Shown here: piece after piece, positions 1,756-63,812 of the stretch
Layout: each line of letters begins with the position of its first letter
Position numbering within the stretch: the first letter of the stretch is position 1
IMG/VR virus record: IMGVR_UViG_3300009149_000011
Span: 1-64,000 of that record
Strand: one strand, 5' to 3'
Source: a virus
Length of the DNA stretch: 64,000 nt
Translations under genes and position numbers: made by a program
The notes under the pieces: generated by a model
What the model saw: only the letters and a program-made list of their open reading frames with translations
Told to the model about the DNA's origin: nothing
Databases searched by the model: none

Positions 1756-1971
1756 GTCTTTTTGTTTTAGTGTTACAATTAATTATACGACAAACTTACG
1801 ATAAAGTTTCGTAACCACCAAATTTATTTTACAACACTCTAAAAAATAAGGAGGAAAGGTTCGTGCTTCGTAGGTAGTTTATCGGTTCAAACCGCCCATA
1901 CTAAAGCACAACAACACCTAAAAAGCATACCCTACGGGATACGCATTTTAGCCAAACCGTTGTAAGTAATA

Positions 1972-25782: not shown

Positions 25783-25853
25783 AGCTACGAGTGGCGCTTG
25801 CATCCACGACCTCCTGAATCTATCAGGCGCTCTACTATCTGAGCTATCCTAGC
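25783..25853 (-). tRNA. atypical tRNA, shortened anticodon arm centred on AGA
   Basis: CCTGA TAGAT TCAGG; T-loop TGCAAGC. Confidence 0.55.
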
Positions 25854-26009: not shown

Positions 26010-26083
26010 AGCGGGTGGACGGGATCAAACCGACTCTATTCCAACTTGGAAGGCTGGCGCACCATCACTTATGCGTCACCCGC
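26010..26083 (-). tRNA. tRNA-Gly(TCC)
   Basis: CCAGC CT TCC AA GTTGG; variant T-loop. Confidence 0.8.
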
Positions 26084-26257: not shown

Positions 26258-26261
26258 AACG

Positions 26262-26412
26262 CAAAAAACCCGAATCCTGTTAGGGATTCGGGTCTGTTTG
26301 TTTAATGTTTTTATACAATCAACTAGAAGACATACGAATCCCGTAAGGTGAAAATCACCTGCCCTTGGCCTTGACCAATTATGCGAGATATTATGTTTGT
26401 CATTCTTTTCAT
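26262..26412 (-). promoter_or_regulatory. transcription attenuator 1: leader MKRMTNIISRIIGQGQGQVIFTLRDSYVF* (26323-26412), antiterminator and terminator
   Basis: Terminator ACCCGAATCC/GGATTCGGGT plus U-tract (26262-26294); GGGATTCG in the leader complements its 5' arm. Confidence 0.8.
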
Positions 26413-26496
26413 TGTCTTTATAAATATGTAAGTTTTTCTATTATTCAAATACTAACGATACAAACATACAAATTGTTTCGTTACTTGTCAAGTATT

Positions 26497-27063
26497 TTAT
26501 GATAAATCTTTAATATAATTTTCAAAAGTGCTCCTGTGAGTGAATTTAAGCCCTTCTTTTATTAAAGGAATTACCTTTTTATGTTTATCTGAAATAATTG
26601 GCCTCTCTATAAATTTTCTATTTGGATTCTCAACTCTATAGCATAACATATCGCTTAAATAAGCGCAAGCCTCTGCGACCAAATCTATTTTATCATCTGG
26701 AAACACATCTTCTAAAGCTTTTTCCATTTTCTTCTGTTTCTCAAGTATGAAATAAAATATGTATTCTATTTGCTTAGATGACATATACTTTCCATTCCTC
26801 TTGCTAACTCTTGTAACCACGGGAAGCATAACCATAGCTGTTTCTTTGTCTAAATTGGTCCCTCCGCCAATCGGTAGAGGTTTATGTGCAAATTCTGGAT
26901 CATCAGAAAATTTAGACATTAAAAAAGCCATTTTTTCCAAATTGGAGGTGGTTATACGTCTAGATTTTATATCATCTATAACATACAAAAGTCCAGACCT
27001 TTCCCAGGATAACGTAGGGTCCAGATCTGGAATTATATAAAACCTCTTTCTAGTTTTATCCAT
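26497..27063 (-). CDS. hypothetical protein
   Basis: 188-aa ORF. Confidence 0.65.
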   Translation of the reverse strand: MDKTRKRFYIIPDLDPTLSWERSGLLYVIDDIKSRRITTSNLEKMAFLMSKFSDDPEFAHKPLPIGGGTNLDKETAMVMLPVVTRVSKRNGKYMSSKQIEYIFYFILEKQKKMEKALEDVFPDDKIDLVAEACAYLSDMLCYRVENPNRKFIERPIISDKHKKVIPLIKEGLKFTHRSTFENYIKDLS

Positions 27064-37808: not shown

Positions 37809-37871
37809 ATCGGTAACATTTAAATTAGTGGGGCATCCGATAAATCGAACACCATTAACCTATATAGGTTG

Positions 37872-38025
37872 TGGGATAGGTAGGATTCGAACCTCAACCT
37901 TACTTTTGGATATCACTAGTAATACTAAGAATCTGCGCAGACTTCCTTTCTCACAAAGATTGTTTTACACAGTCGTAAAACGCCTTGCTCGCCGCAAGGT
38001 GGGCTCACCAGCGCCCAGCTACCCC
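37872..38025 (-). ncRNA. oversized (154-nt) tRNA-like RNA with multiple hairpins in place of the anticodon arm
   Basis: GGGGTAG/CTATCCC-A acceptor, GGGC/GCCC D-arm, TTCGAAT T-loop; 3-4 internal hairpins. Confidence 0.65.
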
Positions 38026-38039
38026 ATGTAGCTTTATTG

Positions 38040-38120
38040 TGGGAGTAGCAGGGATCGAACCTGCACGTTGTTAAACCACGGAGTTACAGTCCGCTAAGCC
38101 ACCAGTTGCTCAATACTCCC
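38040..38120 (-). tRNA. tRNA-Tyr(GTA)
   Basis: CGGA CT GTA AC TCCG; long variable arm. Confidence 0.85.
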
Positions 38121-38121
38121 A

Positions 38122-38673
38122 TTAATTTTGTTTTGCTATAAAACTATCTCTGTATTTATTTACTCGCTCTGATATCAAATTTTTATATCTACTATGCATA
38201 TACATATGATGTGTAGGGCATAGTGGAATCAGATTATCTGGAGAGTTATTTTTTCTATCCTCATCATAATGATGAACATCTATAATTTTATCTTCTTCAC
38301 AAATAACACATTTTTTCTTATGATAATAAAAGCAAGTACTTCTATAAGCGTCATCTTTCCAATTAGGGTGATTAACTCCAGATCTATAATACGTATTAGC
38401 GCAAGAATGAGAACAGGTCACTTTTTCTTTAAGGCCTCCCAATCTTGTTTCAAATTTACCTAAACATATTGGACACTCTTTTTGGATTATGTCATATTTA
38501 ATATTTCTCTTAGATAACCCGCCATCAAAATGACTAACGTCCAACGAAAGGTCTTCAATCATTTTGGTGATTTTTCTTCGCCCTCCACCCCCAGTTACAT
38601 ATCCCATCTTTCTACATACATCGGATTTGCTTTTTGAACTTTTGACAGCTTCAATTAATTTTTCTTTATTCAT
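38122..38673 (-). CDS. HNH homing endonuclease
   Basis: CVICE...DVHHYD.DRKNN...NLIPLCPTHH. Confidence 0.88.
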   Translation of the reverse strand: MNKEKLIEAVKSSKSKSDVCRKMGYVTGGGGRRKITKMIEDLSLDVSHFDGGLSKRNIKYDIIQKECPICLGKFETRLGGLKEKVTCSHSCANTYYRSGVNHPNWKDDAYRSTCFYYHKKKCVICEEDKIIDVHHYDEDRKNNSPDNLIPLCPTHHMYMHSRYKNLISERVNKYRDSFIAKQN

Positions 38674-38762
38674 TATTTTTATTATAAATAATCAAATAAA
38701 AGTATACCACACATCTTTTGAATATGATTGTCCAAAAGTTGTAAGGTGTACCTAGTTTTATG

Positions 38763-38858
38763 TCAGGAGTGGGGGATTCGAACACCCGAACCACACTAAC
38801 TGTGCGCAGTTATCCGTGTCCAAAACGGATGCCTTAAACCTTACTCGATCAATTCCTG
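38763..38858 (-). tRNA. tRNA-Pro(TGG) with long variable arm
   Basis: TCCGT TT TGG AC ACGGA; extra arm AACTGCGCACAGTT; mismatched T-stem. Confidence 0.6.
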
Positions 38859-38896
38859 ATATCTCAAGGGAGTATACGCCTTACCCAAGAACTGCG

Positions 38897-38983
38897 TGGT
38901 GGGAGCGAGAGGGATCGAACCTCCTATCCATGCGGATTACCAGGGTTACAACCTGACGCCTAACCAATTTGTGCATCACTCCC
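38897..38983 (-). tRNA. tRNA-Tyr(GTA), CCA encoded
   Basis: CAGG TT GTA AC CCTG. Confidence 0.85.
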
Positions 38984-39003
38984 AATTTATGTGTCCTACT
39001 CCA

Positions 39004-39090
39004 AGAAGCAGACTGGACTCGAACCAGCGATCTTCGGCTTGGAATACGCAAATGCTTTTCCGACGCTCTATCCAACTGAGCTACAACCTC
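39004..39090 (-). tRNA. tRNA-like gene with ~15-nt insertion in the anticodon loop
   Basis: Normal D/T arms; TCGG[AAAAGCATTTGCGTA]TTCCAAGCCGA. Confidence 0.5.
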
Positions 39091-39285
39091 TCTTCAGACA
39101 CATACTTAATAGCTTCATCTACTTTATCAGATTGTTGCTTCCTTTCATTAAACTTTTACTTTCAGACCTGTCCAGCTCTTCCCTGGATCACAGTTTTTAA
39201 GGTCTAGCCTTTGCGTATGTTATCGTCCAGCTAATCGTTTAATTTCCAGAAACACTTCCCATCCATTTCCTTGAAGTGTTCGGTG

Positions 39286-39360
39286 TGGAGGATATCGGAG
39301 TCGAACCGATGACCTCTGCAGTGCAAGTGCAGCGCTCTAAGCCAGCTGAGCTAATCCCCC
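39286..39360 (-). tRNA. tRNA-Ala(TGC)
   Basis: G3:U70; CTGCA CT TGC AC TGCAG. Confidence 0.92.
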
Positions 39361-39418
39361 AAATATAATTCTATGCAGCTACTCTATAAGCTCTATGAAT
39401 TATTAACAGTCTCTCTCG

Positions 39419-39492
39419 TGGACACATACGGGCTTCGAACCCGTGACTCCTGGGTGCAAACCAAGTGTGATAGCCAACTTCACCAACGGCCC
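39419..39492 (-). tRNA. tRNA-Ala(TGC), divergent copy
   Basis: TGG TT TGC AC CCA; mismatched acceptor. Confidence 0.65.
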
Positions 39493-39503
39493 AAATATTA
39501 TTA

Positions 39504-39580
39504 TGGCGGTCCAGAAGGAATTCGAATCCTCAATCTCTCCCGTGACAGGGGAGCAACATGCGCCGATATGATGCTGGACC
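39504..39580 (-). tRNA. tRNA-Asp(GTC), CCA encoded
   Basis: CTCCC CT GTC AC GGGAG; G73. Confidence 0.82.
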
Positions 39581-39660
39581 ATGGTGGAGGGATTTTAGTT
39601 GACCTGCAGGATCAATTTAACTTTCACCACCCCCCGATGTGAATCACAATGAAAGTATTG

Positions 39661-39736
39661 CGGGATATACGGGATTCGAACCCGTGACCTTCTGCGTGAC
39701 AGGCAGACATCCTAAGCCAGACTAGACCAATACCCC
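39661..39736 (-). tRNA. tRNA-Asp(GTC)
   Basis: TCTGC CT GTC AC GCAGA; G73. Confidence 0.9.
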
Positions 39737-39742
39737 AATTAA

Positions 39743-39942
39743 AATTATCTATCCATTTCTAAGTGGAATATTTTCATTGACAAACGATCTGCTTTCACAG
39801 GCAATCCCTCAATATCTTACAATAAACAACGTCATCTTAGCATGACTATAAAACTTACCTAACGAACCTATCTCTGCCGCTCTAGGAGGTGTAGGGATTC
39901 AACCCACTTCATAGTTTTACTGCTTATCTTCAGTAGATAATT
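39743..39942 (-). ncRNA. candidate ~200-nt structured RNA between tRNAs
   Basis: Nested pairings AATTATCTA/TAGATAATT, AAGTGG/CCACTT, AATCCCT/AGGGATT, GTCAT/ATGAC. Confidence 0.45.
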
Positions 39943-39944
39943 AG

Positions 39945-40017
39945 CTCTCGCGCCTGGGCTTGAACCAGGGACCATCGGAGTAACAATCCGAAGCTCTACC
40001 AGCTGAGCTACACGAGA
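39945..40017 (-). tRNA. tRNA-Asn(GTT)
   Basis: TCGGA TT GTT AC TCCGA. Confidence 0.9.
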
Positions 40018-40019
40018 AT

Positions 40020-40585
40020 TTACACTTTAATGATTCCAGCATGTATCTCTCTATGACAATTAGAACACACTAAAATACATTTATCAAGTTCTTTTTTTAC
40101 TTTATCCCAAGAGTAACAATAACCTCTATGGCTTAAGGAAAAATCTTTTTCATTAGGATCAATGTGGTGAAACTCTAAAGCTCCGATATACTTGTCATAT
40201 CCACAACACTGACATTTTTCACCTTTATAATCCACGGCCATATCTTTAACTTTTCTCCTTCTTTTTTGTACAGCTTCGATTCCCCTCTTTCTTTTTTCTT
40301 CCAGAGAATAGGTTTTATTTTTTTCAGCTGAATATAATTTGTAACAGTACTCCTGCTAAATCCAAATTTTTCAGCCACTTTATTACTTGACCCACATTCA
40401 TCATAATACCTTTGCATATCAGAAATTGTATTTTCATCTATTCTTAAATCAGGAGCTCCAATACCAGCTTTTCTGCAATGATGAGAGACAGTGGATTTAG
40501 AACACCCTAATTCTTCGCTTATCTCTTTGTAAATCTTACCTTGTTTTCTTAGATCAATAATCTTACCTTTTAGAACACTTGTCAT
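40020..40585 (-). pseudogene. HTH-HTH-HNH homing endonuclease split by a frameshift near an A7 run (~40318-40324)
   Basis: HTH part (40175-40585) and CQCCGY...LEFHH...CSNCHREIH part (40020-40241) join if one A is added. Confidence 0.75.
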
Positions 40586-40642
40586 ATAAATTAATTTTTA
40601 TTGTTAATCTAAAAAGACGAAGGTCTAAAGTAAATAGTTTTG

Positions 40643-40716
40643 AGAATCATCTGAGACTCGAACTCAGATCTCTAAGTTTAACAAACTTGCATTTAAGCTA
40701 TTAAACTAAAAGTCCT
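40643..40716 (-). tRNA. degenerate tRNA-Asn(GTT)
   Basis: AAGT TT GTT AA ACTT; good T-arm, poor acceptor. Confidence 0.5.
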
Positions 40717-40722
40717 TTTTTG

Positions 40723-40896
40723 CTGTAGGAGAAGGATTCGAACCTTCAAGGTGCAGTTACCGATTAGACATTTTGCTTACTCTAAGTATTTTAATGCTTA
40801 GTGGTCAATCCATTATCTAACGTTTATCCCGTGATCACCGCCTTCGAGACAGGAAGGTGCGTTTGCCCAGACCGAAGTCCGTTTCGCCACCCTACA
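40723..40896 (-). ncRNA. oversized (174-nt) tRNA-Asp(GTC)-like RNA
   Basis: TGTAGGG/TCCTACA-G acceptor, CCTTC CT GTC TC GAAGG, GGAC-TTCG-GTCT hairpin in the D-loop, ~85-nt variable region. Confidence 0.7.
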
Positions 40897-40912
40897 ATTT
40901 GTTATTACCAAC

Positions 40913-40924
40913 ATGTCAAAGAAC
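40913..40924 (-). promoter_or_regulatory. boxA-like antitermination element GTTCTTTGACAT
   Basis: Also at 24859-24870, 25989-26000 and (variant) 24549-24560, all inside tRNA operons. Confidence 0.65.
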
Positions 40925-40949
40925 TGGAAGTAAACTTTTTTACTTCTCG

Positions 40950-41023
40950 TCGGAGCAGTAGGATTCGAACCTACGACCTCACCCCTCCAAAGGGCGTAAA
41001 CAACCTGACCGTTATCTACTCCG
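40950..41023 (-). tRNA. tRNA-Pro(TGG)
   Basis: CGGAGTA acceptor; CCC TT TGG AG GGG. Confidence 0.82.
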
Positions 41024-41035
41024 TTTTATTTAAAC

Positions 41036-41209
41036 ACAAAAAAACCCAAGCCTTTCGGACTTGGGTTTCTTTATATCTTTGGATTATATTCTGTTTTACC
41101 AGCTTATAATATCAAATATAACATCTCCAAGTCCTCGATTACGATCATAATCGGGATTGCCCGCGTTACACGGATAATTATTGGCGATATTTATATTTGC
41201 TCTTTTCAT
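41036..41209 (-). promoter_or_regulatory. transcription attenuator 2: leader MKRANINIANNYPCNAGNPDYDRNRGLGDVIFDIISW* (41096-41209), antiterminator and terminator
   Basis: Terminator CCCAAGTCC-GAAA-GGCTTGGG-U7; GGACTTGG (41127-41134) complements its 5' arm; upstream hairpin TCCCGATTAT-GATC-GTAATCGAGGA. Confidence 0.82.
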
Positions 41210-41489
41210 TTTCTTATTATTAAATAGTTAAGGTTTTTGTTTTTCCTAATTAACTATACGACAAACTTAGAGTTTTTGTTTCAATTTGTCAAGTATTATT
41301 ATGAAAAACTTTAAAAAAACTTTCATAATCTCTTATTATTGGCTAAAAACGCTATTTATTAGCGCATCATTATTACAGCCACTTCATTCATAATAATCAT
41401 AAACTTTATTCTTCTCTGCTTAATCTTGTGCTTCATCCTTATACACCTCATGTATATTGTAACATTTTTCATAACTCTTATAAAATAAG

Positions 41490-41547
41490 AAAAGGGGTTA
41501 GTAGCGAACTTTCCCCTTTTCAATGACCGAAGTCATAACGGTCCTAA
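41490..41547 (+). other. permuted mimic of 23S rRNA helix 69-71 sequence; doubles as minus-strand terminator
   Basis: GTAGCGAA in a hairpin loop, followed by GACCG-AAGTCATAA-CGGTC-CTAA. Confidence 0.55.
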
Positions 41548-41563
41548 TCCGTATGTTTTAACC

Positions 41564-42388
41564 TTAACTAGTAGGAAAGGTTGTTATAGTTTCATTATTT
41601 TTATCTATCACTAAAACTGGCATCTTATCGATCCCTAATTCTATAGCAGCATACGCTCTATGTCTACCATCGTGATCTACTACTTTATTATTATTCAAAT
41701 ATAATGTAGGAGGATCTATTTTCACACCTTTTTCCATCATATTTTTCAAGTCCTCTATATTATCTTTAGAATCTTCATCCTCAACATTCAATGCGGGGGA
41801 CAGTTTTAAAAACTTTTCTGGAGACATCATAAAAATCTTACCACCTCTTGCTTCATAGTCAGAGTCTCCATATTCTGGAGGCAAAGCAACTGGATATTGT
41901 GCAGAATTCTCTTTAACAGATAGTATTGGGTTAGATGTTTGAAAACCCTTTTTCCTCATCACCGTCTTGCTTACAAGGTCCATTTCTTGATTCTTCTCAT
42001 CCCATTCTAAAGCGAATGGAATATTAATGTCTGTAGATAAGCTTTTTATAACAGCTTGAAAGCTTGCTCCAGATTTATTGATGTCATCCTTATATTTAGA
42101 ATACACTTCCTTGAAGATAGCTCTTAGCTCGTCAATAGTGATATCCTTCTTGTTTCTAGGATCATTTACTCTATCTAAAAAATGTTTAGTAAACTCAATA
42201 TCAATTCCAGCTCCAGCAAAAAGAGCATCCAATTCTCTTTCTAAAGAATTTAGATGCTCACTTGTTATATAAGAATTGTAGGCGGGATCATCATGGGCAA
42301 TTTTTTTACCCATATCAACAGACCCTATCCTTGGTCGCTTTTCTAAAAAAAGTTTAACCTCTTCCTTAATTATGTCTATTAGTTTCAT
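41564..42388 (-). CDS. IIKEE-motif protein with HFLDRVND domain and C-terminal ParB/Srx-like domain
   Basis: MKLIDIIKEEVKLFLE; DHDGRHRAYAA. Confidence 0.7.
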   Translation of the reverse strand: MKLIDIIKEEVKLFLEKRPRIGSVDMGKKIAHDDPAYNSYITSEHLNSLERELDALFAGAGIDIEFTKHFLDRVNDPRNKKDITIDELRAIFKEVYSKYKDDINKSGASFQAVIKSLSTDINIPFALEWDEKNQEMDLVSKTVMRKKGFQTSNPILSVKENSAQYPVALPPEYGDSDYEARGGKIFMMSPEKFLKLSPALNVEDEDSKDNIEDLKNMMEKGVKIDPPTLYLNNNKVVDHDGRHRAYAAIELGIDKMPVLVIDKNNETITTFPTS

Positions 42389-56749: not shown

Positions 56750-57110
56750 TTTAAAGACCTGAGAGGAGGCTCCGCCTCCCCTAAAGTCTCGAATTCTTTT
56801 AATTGAATGAATGCTGATTAGGCAGCCATTGCAAGAGATTCTGTGTTTACGTTTATTTCGCCGTTTACTTGTTTTGATCTAACTCTTTTCACTCCGTTCA
56901 TCATGACCAGTCAAGTGCCAGTTAATCCCCATTTAAACTCTTTACCTTAAAGTTTGATTTCTCAGGGACAATAAGGAATCAGATAACTGTTTCCATGTCA
57001 TAGTTACGTTTCCGAAGAAAGAGGCTTTACTAGACCTAGTGGAGAATTGGGGAGTTGAACCCCAGTCCTGTGAAACTTCTCGAAACAAATACGAACGAGT
57101 AGCGATCCTG
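56750..57110 (-). ncRNA. ssrA: circularly permuted two-piece tmRNA; tag (A)GEINVNTESLAMAA
   Basis: Acceptor piece ...GGAC-TGGGG-TTCAACT-CCCCA-ATTCTCC-A (ends 57040) precedes coding piece GGGGATTAACTGGCACTTGAC (starts 56930); G3:U70; tag ORF 56818-56862. Outer ends are approximate. Confidence 0.85.
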
Positions 57111-62254: not shown

Positions 62255-62265
62255 TTTAAAGTTAG

Positions 62266-62338
62266 AGGGAGTGATGGGGCTCGAACCCACGACCACGGTG
62301 TTAGAGACCGCTGTTCTAACCAGCTGAACTACACTCCC
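62266..62338 (-). tRNA. amber suppressor tRNA(CTA), Trp-like body
   Basis: GGGAGTG/CACTCCC acceptor, GCGGT CT CTA AC ACCGT, GTGGG-TTCGAGC-CCCAT; own promoter motif 62351-62375. Confidence 0.88.
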
Positions 62339-63649: not shown

Positions 63650-63655
63650 AACTTG

Positions 63656-63733
63656 AGCTCCTGGAAGGGATCGAACCTCCGAACTTTCTAAACCTTGCGG
63701 GGTTTAGCGCTTATACCAACCAGCCACAGGAGC
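63656..63733 (-). tRNA. atypical tRNA, extended anticodon arm with loop CCGCAA
   Basis: CTAAACC CCGCAA GGTTTAG; U73. Confidence 0.6.
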
Positions 63734-63739
63734 ATTTTG

Positions 63740-63812
63740 AGCGAAGGGGTAGAATCGAACTACCGTACTATAGGTTTGCGGACCTATCGCCTAACCACTC
63801 GGCAACCTTCGC
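63740..63812 (-). tRNA. Cys-like tRNA with 8-nt anticodon loop TCCGCAAA
   Basis: ATAGG TCCGCAAA CCTAT; U73. Confidence 0.68.

Follow-up and report, generated by a model that had tools for sequence, protein, structure and literature searches.

Leader reading frames matched to their tRNA clusters suggest ribosome-mediated attenuation of tRNA genes in large phages

Why should a short open reading frame (ORF) and a strong intrinsic terminator stand between a phage promoter and a set of transfer RNA (tRNA) genes? This question is raised by the IMG/VR virus record IMGVR_UViG_3300009149_000011, a 149-kb sequence whose first 64 kb are called the window in the following. The genome has a G+C content of 34.5% and contains 30 tRNA genes according to ARAGORN, all of them on the minus strand. 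One 3.3-kb cluster of these genes, which extends from a tRNA-Pro down to ~37871, lies behind a leader that a first-pass annotation of the DNA had called the second of two attenuators with codons matching their own tRNAs (leader 2). tRNA genes are usually thought to be governed only by promoter strength and by growth-rate or stringent control. The results presented here make it probable that a ribosome-mediated (leader-peptide) transcription attenuator gates this cluster. According to the codon correspondences and folding models, the best reading is a multivalent attenuator that would sense decoding speed, a known mechanism that acts here on tRNA genes.

On the minus strand, a gene for a 274-amino-acid protein and its terminator-like hairpin are followed by a promoter block, the leader ORF, the terminator, the tRNA-Pro gene, and the rest of the cluster. 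Promoter, short ATG-initiated ORF, U7 terminator, and first tRNA lie within 270 nucleotides (nt) on this one strand, and the leader unit proper (promoter, short ORF, and strong terminator) is compact, with about 230 nt. Its elements are, in the direction of transcription:

41484..41520, minus strand: terminator-like hairpin with T-run, closing the upstream 274-amino-acid gene (stop at 41564)
41262..41292, minus strand: promoter predicted from consensus, with a TTGACA-like hexamer (41292..41287), a 17-nt spacer, and a Bacteroidota-type -7 motif TAnnTTTG (41269..41262)
41096..41209, minus strand: leader ORF of 37 codons plus TAA stop, beginning Met-Lys-Arg
41144..41185, minus strand: sensing block, codons 9-22, 12 of 14 being Ala, Asn, Tyr, Pro, or Asp codons
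41161..41173, minus strand: small hairpin within the sensing block, seen in folds; possibly an RNA polymerase pause hairpin
41132..41156, minus strand: hairpin over the Pro-Asp-Tyr-Asp codons, whose 3' end shares 3 nt with the antiterminator strand
41127..41134, minus strand: antiterminator 5' strand GGACUUGG, 8 nt, codons 26-28, complementary to the 5' arm of the terminator
41113..41130, minus strand: 3' strand of a long helix with 41199..41181, a candidate anti-antiterminator, in the full-length minimum free energy (MFE) structure only
41038..41068, minus strand: intrinsic terminator (attenuator) with an 8-9-bp G+C-rich stem, GAAA loop, and U7; -13.9 kcal/mol

The hairpin at 41484..41520 points to separate transcription of the leader unit from a promoter of its own. 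The promoter motif block recurs upstream of leader 1 in the same genome (73% identity over promoter and start) and at 1798..1764. At the latter site (1764-1798, minus strand) it precedes an ordinary protein gene directly, with no leader between them, and this promoter type is thus not specific to tRNA units.

The leader ORF (41209-41096) and its 12 matching codons among codons 9-22 were recovered from the sequence as first annotated, and so were the positions of the hairpin (41156..41132), the antiterminator strand (41134..41127), and the terminator (41068..41038). The inventory given for the cluster was also correct: ARAGORN (default and relaxed settings) and Rfam found two tRNAs each for Pro, Asn, Asp, Ala, and Tyr and an oversized tRNA-Asp, and in addition two tRNA-like genes of unassigned identity (39003-39091 and 37871-38025). 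The two exceptions within the sensing block are one Cys and one Gly codon. The best 12-codon window in the frame of the ATG holds 10 codons for amino acids of the cluster, compared to 3-7 in the other five frames. When all stop-free six-frame windows of the 149-kb genome were screened, 12 of 14 codons for Ala, Asn, Tyr, Pro, or Asp occurred at only three loci (~1e-4 of windows), and the other two loci are Ala/Pro low-complexity stretches within genes.

The correspondence is repeated elsewhere in the genome. The unit of leader 1 (26527..26260, ORF 26411..26322) has the promoter block and the first three codons (Met-Lys-Arg) in common with leader 2, but its terminator differs, and the antiterminator strand differs to match. 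Codons for Ile, Arg, Gly, Gln, and Val abound in its run, and cluster 1 encodes tRNAs for Gly, Ile, Gln, Arg, Val, and Met. That the sensing blocks of both leaders share Gly only, that each fits its own cluster, and that both ORFs begin with Met-Lys-Arg had been stated in the first-pass annotation and was seen here as well. The search recommended there for leaders at further clusters of this genome revealed a third unit (~78914..78760), in which 16 consecutive Met, Ser, Arg, or Trp codons stand ahead of a cluster with three Ser tRNAs and tRNAs for Phe, Met, Arg, and Trp. In a six-frame search of the genome, neither the codon run of leader 1 nor that of leader 3 occurred a second time. Among all terminators of the 149-kb genome that are preceded by a short ORF, only these three leaders combine the ORF and terminator with a strong antiterminator and downstream tRNAs. 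Together the three units head 24 of the 30 tRNA genes found by ARAGORN. At the remaining six (two tRNA-Met beside a permuted transfer-messenger RNA [tmRNA], two amber suppressors, and two calls with four-base anticodons) no leader was found, and this includes the amber-suppressor cluster entering at the right edge of the window, where a matching leader had been looked for on the suggestion of the first annotation. The proposed partitioning of the phage's tRNAs into demand-controlled modules is hence borne out as far as matched leaders are concerned; a total partition is not, since the right-edge and Met/tmRNA clusters are leaderless.

Units of the same kind were found in other giant phages. 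A weak blastn match to the terminator pointed to LR756504.1, a phage genome of 636 kb; otherwise, blastn searches of the leader against the phage collection returned tRNA hits only. A survey of all tRNA clusters of LR756504.1 yielded six units, whose amino-acid sets are Glu/Ala/Ile/Val/Gly, Trp/His/Phe, Leu/Ser/Cys, Thr/Asn/Arg, Arg/Ile/Met, and Tyr/Gln/Lys. Five more units are present in LR756501.1 (735 kb) and two in Lak-B1. With the three of the present genome, this amounts to 16 modules from four genomes. Codon-matched leaders at other clusters and in homologs, with which the initial proposal was to stand or fall, thus occur at 13 clusters in three other phages. For 14 modules, the best 12-codon windows were scored for the amino acids of the downstream clusters. 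Own clusters gave a total of 141, compared to 58.8 ± 9.2 for permuted assignments (z = 8.9), and the maximum of 200,000 leader-to-cluster permutations was 112, so that none reached the true value. At the level of strict wobble pairing, the same 14 modules scored 129 versus 51.3 ± 8.8. In a matrix of nine modules, the scores for the own cluster (6-12) were the maxima of their row and column in 9 of 9 cases. In none of the 14 modules did any of the six frames score above the ATG frame; an in-frame ATG exists in 16 of 16, and the distance from stop codon to terminator stem is 22-39 nt. Complementarity between a segment within the ORF and the terminator arm was significant in 11 of 16 modules (≤7 of 2000 shuffles). 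The terminator sequences differ among modules, and each antiterminator strand co-varies with its own terminator.

Homologous modules change together with their clusters. Three of them have Asn, Tyr, and Asp in common, to which Pro and Ala are added in the present genome, Cys and Ile in LR756501.1, and Val, Ala, Trp, Gln, and Met in Lak-B1, and each addition is that of the leader's own cluster. In orthologs of one module from Lak phages A, B, and C, none of 24 alignment columns in the terminator arms varies, as opposed to 11 of 16 in the loop, and the length of the ORF is kept. Six codons of the run are variable: three changes are synonymous, one is from Cys to Gly (both in the set), one from Leu to Pro (Pro in the set), and one from Ile to Val (both outside). 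This variation, from a small sample, fits selection on structure and codon identity. Searches of IMG/VR for syntenic loci by means of the neighboring 274-amino-acid gene found only distant relatives (≤55% identity) in unrelated contexts, and a search for the exact pattern of antiterminator plus terminator had a single match there, a duplicate of the Trp/His/Phe module of LR756504.1. The Lak phages and the two very large genomes, LR756504.1 and LR756501.1, are members of the Mahaphage clade, for which Bacteroidetes hosts are predicted (PMC7162821). Because a 675-amino-acid protein of the present genome has no match in LR756504.1, LR756501.1, or Lak-B1, membership in this clade is not claimed here. 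A Bacteroidota-type host is suggested only by the TAnnTTTG promoter motif and the amber-suppressor tRNAs.

How the RNA of leader 2 could act as a switch was addressed by folding. The region 41215..41030 folds at -60.9 kcal/mol, compared to -31.2 ± 3.95 kcal/mol for dinucleotide shuffles (z = -7.5). The terminator is composed of a 5' arm (41065..41057), the GAAA loop, a 3' arm (41052..41045), and U7 (41044..41038), and is separated from the tRNA-Pro gene by 15 nt. When the transcript was truncated ahead of the 3' arm of the terminator, the antiterminator strand (41134..41127) paired with 41064..41057 at a probability (P) of ~0.7. The energy of this duplex, -13.9 kcal/mol, equals that of the terminator hairpin and was equalled by 7 of 2000 leader shuffles. 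Of the full 1:2 / 2:3 / 3:4 hairpin layout announced in the first-pass annotation, the antiterminator and terminator are thus present. The 1:2 part is weaker than described: the hairpin named for it has just 3 nt in common with the antiterminator strand, and both structures can exist side by side. What really competes for this strand is the longer helix of 41199..41181 with 41130..41113, which sequesters half of it. As this helix is present in the full-length MFE structure and not dominant in the truncated transcript, where the antiterminator still prevails without a ribosome (P 0.69), the three-hairpin scheme is only partly supported. Most modules look like two-state devices, antiterminator versus terminator, and the folds place the leader 2 module in an intermediate position.

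The effect of ribosome position was modeled in two ways. Equilibrium folding of the full leader and terminator, with the ribosome footprint forced to be unpaired, kept the terminator in the MFE structure almost everywhere and hence cannot discriminate between positions. It was replaced by a model in which the RNA is cut just before the terminator 3' arm and a footprint of 29 nt (assumed to reach from -15 to +14 around the A site) is single-stranded. In leader 2, the terminator 5' arm is then captured upstream with P ~0.7 when the A site is at codons 1-21, and with P of 0-0.1 at codons 23-32. A like drop where the codon run ends is shared by 14 of 14 modules with a correctly picked terminator; modules C5 and D1, for which the wrong T-run had been picked, were left out of these profiles and their antiterminator duplexes were evaluated separately. 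Without a ribosome, the antiterminator is predicted in seven of the first nine modules and in C1-C4 and D2 (P 0.6-0.97). Since read-through is the default in this situation, termination would need active translation past the run.

The sequence elements, their mutual complementarity, the dependence of the folding models on ribosome position, and the correspondence of leader and cluster in 16 modules are what the analysis shows; that the leader is translated and termination regulated, the direction of the switch, and its physiological trigger are what we infer from them. A host-type RNA polymerase would start near 41265 and transcribe the 37-codon leader. A translating ribosome would then meet, in the middle of the leader, the run of codons for Ala, Asn, Tyr, Pro, and Asp, the amino acids of the downstream tRNAs. 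If a charged cognate tRNA were scarce, slow decoding would hold the ribosome on the run and leave 41134..41127 free to pair with the 5' arm of the terminator once this is made, so that no terminator hairpin could form and the tRNA genes would be transcribed. With fast decoding, the ribosome would cover 41134..41127, and the RNA it releases might refold into the helix of 41199..41181 with 41130..41113. The terminator would then form and transcription would end at the U7 run (41044..41038). New tRNAs would speed up decoding and thereby close a negative feedback loop. As codons for several amino acids are mixed in the run, a shortage of any one of them would induce the whole cluster (multivalent, OR logic). 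A broader and tentative interpretation is that giant phages keep a tRNA-supply homeostat, in which each amino-acid-sorted block is switched on only when its own codons are decoded slowly, and that the leaders, by sensing the depletion of host tRNAs, are part of a counter-defence. The slowdown might result from the degradation or cleavage of host tRNAs by anticodon-nuclease defences, or from a codon demand of late genes beyond the supply.

Several results weigh against ribosome-mediated attenuation in this form. With strict wobble pairing only 9 of the 12 codons in the best window match, as GCC and CCC are not classical targets of the UGC and UGG anticodons, and no tRNA of the cluster was identified for the Cys and Gly codons of the run. 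One of these two codons might be accounted for by the unassigned tRNA-like gene (39003-39091). At equilibrium, the terminator remains most stable at nearly every modeled ribosome position; any switch must hence operate kinetically, like that of classical attenuators, which is beyond what folding models can show. Furthermore, a ribosome at the stop codon uncovers the antiterminator strand again (P of 0.3-0.7 at codons 33-38), so that termination hinges on timing or on the weaker 1:2 helix. Finally, most modules would also answer to a general loss of translation, because they predict read-through without a ribosome.

The last point leads to a different view, in which the device senses global translation capacity. 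Any lag of ribosomes, whether due to host shut-off, a ribosome-targeting defence, or starvation, would turn the clusters on, and the codon match would merely tune the response. The predicted prevalence of the antiterminator in ribosome-free leaders and the apparent need for translation past the run agree with this view. It leaves unexplained, however, why each leader contains the amino acids of its own cluster, a sorting that a general sensor would not need, and as the explanation of these loci it is unlikely, even though sensing of global capacity and of specific tRNAs can coexist. That the codon match arises by chance might be suspected in an A+T-rich genome with common Asn, Tyr, and Asp codons, where a 14-codon window was picked post hoc and two other loci also reach 12 of 14. 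Those loci are the low-complexity Ala/Pro stretches mentioned above, however, and such windows are rare. Fifteen other modules with quite different amino-acid sets show the correspondence too, and no permutation equals the true assignment; chance is thus hardly credible.

The ORF and hairpin might also be an independent small gene or a small RNA, the cluster behind them being expressed without regulation by leaky read-through or from another promoter. The leader unit is indeed complete in this respect, with a promoter, a short ORF, and a strong terminator in ~230 nt, and equilibrium folds favor termination. Against such a gene speak the peptides, which are not conserved between modules save for the first residues and an RNA-constrained tail and whose composition tracks the downstream tRNAs, as well as the significant complementarity of in-ORF segments to terminator arms and the lack of a promoter-like motif in the 15 nt between terminator and tRNA-Pro. 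We regard this explanation as very improbable. About as little can be said for direct binding of tRNAs by the leader RNA, as an array of specifier triplets that would work without the ribosome. T-box leaders, known RNAs that read tRNA anticodons to set the choice between terminator and antiterminator, provide the precedent. However, in all 16 modules the matching triplets share the frame of an ATG located a few codons before them, and this frame is open to the stop; other frames score far lower. Rfam detected no T-box family at the gathering threshold (whole window) or at E up to 10 (40900-41400), and the folds contain nothing like a Stem I platform or a T-box sequence. Such a mechanism appears slightly more doubtful still.

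The cluster that leader 2 would control has the following composition, again in the direction of transcription:

40949..41023, minus strand: tRNA-Pro(UGG), first gene of the cluster (ARAGORN)
40722..40896, minus strand: oversized tRNA-Asp(GUC), interrupted by a predicted intron of 94 nt (ARAGORN run with introns at a relaxed threshold)
40642..40715, minus strand: tRNA-Asn(GUU) (ARAGORN, Rfam)
40020..40585, minus strand: two small ORFs, for a helix-turn-helix (HTH) protein (40175-40585) and an HNH endonuclease (40020-40241)
39944..40017, minus strand: tRNA-Asn(GUU) (ARAGORN, Rfam)
39660-39736 and 39504-39580, minus strand: two tRNA-Asp(GUC) (ARAGORN)
39418-39491 and 39285-39360, minus strand: two tRNA-Ala(UGC) (ARAGORN, Rfam)
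39003..39091, minus strand: tRNA-like gene whose anticodon is not confidently assignable (Rfam tRNA, 45 bits)
38897-38983, minus strand: tRNA-Tyr(GUA) (ARAGORN)
38762-38858, minus strand: tRNA-Pro(UGG) (ARAGORN)
38122..38673, minus strand: ORF of 183 amino acids with a weak HNH endonuclease signature below the Pfam cut-off
38039-38120, minus strand: tRNA-Tyr(GUA) (ARAGORN)
37871-38025, minus strand: long tRNA-like sequence (ARAGORN, relaxed)

The HTH/HNH pair at 40020..40585 probably is a homing element. At the DNA level, the inserted HNH/HTH ORFs (38122-38673 and 40020-40585) are 70-76% identical to HNH genes of Lak, Klebsiella, Aeromonas, and Yersinia phages. In being a dense array of tRNA genes with interspersed homing endonuclease genes, the cluster resembles other phage tRNA clusters such as the T4 tRNA region and those of Lak phages, and intron-bearing tRNAs also occur in Lak-type phages. 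The tRNA regions of Lak megaphages, including the introns, have been described (bioRxiv 10.1101/356790). The texts of the Lak and huge-phage papers do not contain the strings "attenuat", "leader", or "terminator", and no leader ORF or attenuator is reported in them.

With respect to its architecture, leader 2 resembles the leaders of the thr (Thr and Ile codons) and ilvGMEDA (Ile, Leu, and Val codons) operons and trpL, hisL, leuL, and pheL, which consist of a short translated ORF with regulatory codons and a terminator just downstream. As in enterobacterial attenuators, the antiterminator shares a strand with the terminator, the position of the ribosome would decide between them, and one leader may contain codons for several amino acids. 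It differs in that tRNA genes are targeted instead of biosynthetic enzymes, so that what the operon produces is exactly the molecule whose lack would stall the ribosome. Moreover, the absence of translation predicts read-through here, most modules having no convincing 1:2 hairpin, whereas it gives super-attenuation in trp. Finally, leader 2 belongs to a phage of presumably Bacteroidota-type hosts and has no similarity to enterobacterial leaders in sequence or by covariance models. No Rfam leader family matched the window at the gathering threshold, and the best amino-acid leader hit in 40900-41400 (E up to 10) was Thr_leader with 25.2 bits versus a cut-off of 55, mainly over the terminator. 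The T-box covariance model matched neither the whole window at the gathering threshold nor 40900-41400 at E up to 10. T-box riboswitches, which lie ahead of translation-related genes, likewise sense the status of tRNAs and set the choice of terminator or antiterminator accordingly. In their case, however, the RNA itself contacts the tRNA and no ribosome takes part, Stem I and the T-box sequence are conserved, and the genes controlled are those for synthetases, transport, or biosynthesis. Another parallel is the attenuator of pheST (phenylalanyl-tRNA synthetase) in E. coli, whose Phe-rich leader also subjects a decoding component to leader-peptide attenuation, although it controls a synthetase, senses a single amino acid, and belongs to a cellular gene. 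A full-text search, for which subscription journals were mostly outside reach, found no published attenuator or leader peptide tied to phage or tRNA genes, and to our knowledge such regulatory logic is undescribed for any tRNA gene.

The new element is the target: the regulated tRNAs would be those that decode the leader, which would make for a direct product-feedback loop. If the proposed mechanism is true, leader-peptide attenuation gains a new class of targets, reaches into Bacteroidota-type systems, and includes direct feedback by the product. The phage would measure decoding speed codon by codon and make only those sets of tRNAs that it lacks. What large phages carry tRNAs for, and when they use them, is debated; among the proposals are compensation of codon usage, substitution for host tRNAs that have been degraded, and evasion of defences that cleave tRNAs. 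This debate would become testable, because the leader would tell which shortage each block answers. Being compact (~230 nt), naturally orthogonal, and available with many specificities, the modules could also be used to report how much of a specific charged tRNA is available.

Further observations concern the other leaders and clusters. The ORF of leader 1 (26322-26411, minus strand) ends in TAG, and the phage carries amber-suppressor tRNAs with CUA anticodons at 62265-62338 and, beyond the window, at 64291-64364. Read-through of this TAG late in infection could extend leader 1 by four codons to a TAA and alter the behavior of the attenuator. Two tRNA-like genes (26010-26080 and 25783-25850, minus strand) were missed by ARAGORN at default settings and by Rfam at the gathering threshold. 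One of them folds into a clean cloverleaf whose UCC (Gly) anticodon loop would suit the GGG codon of leader 1, and the other has an irregular anticodon arm. In LR756504.1, a repeated unit (at ~930-1010 and ~905-985 of two stretches taken in the orientation of their clusters) comprises a conserved RNA of ~70 nt, rich in hairpins, behind a pair of promoter-like motifs; it sits before odd tRNA-like genes that ARAGORN could not assign, in clusters without a leader ORF. The Met/tmRNA cluster of the present genome has a promoter motif directly upstream, without leader ORF or attenuator, and its permuted two-piece tmRNA (56818-57099, minus strand; RF04321, 51.2 bits versus a cut-off of 47) lies beside two tRNA-Met genes. 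The adjacent ARAGORN tRNAs at 63655-63733 and 63739-63812 (minus strand) have a four-base anticodon (cgca) and Rfam tRNA scores of 37.7 and 49.6 bits; they may decode quadruplets, or their loops may have been mis-called. Genome-wide, two styles of terminators are used: protein genes mostly end in AAGG...CCTT hairpins flanked by A/T-runs, and the three attenuators have AACCC...GGGTT stems.

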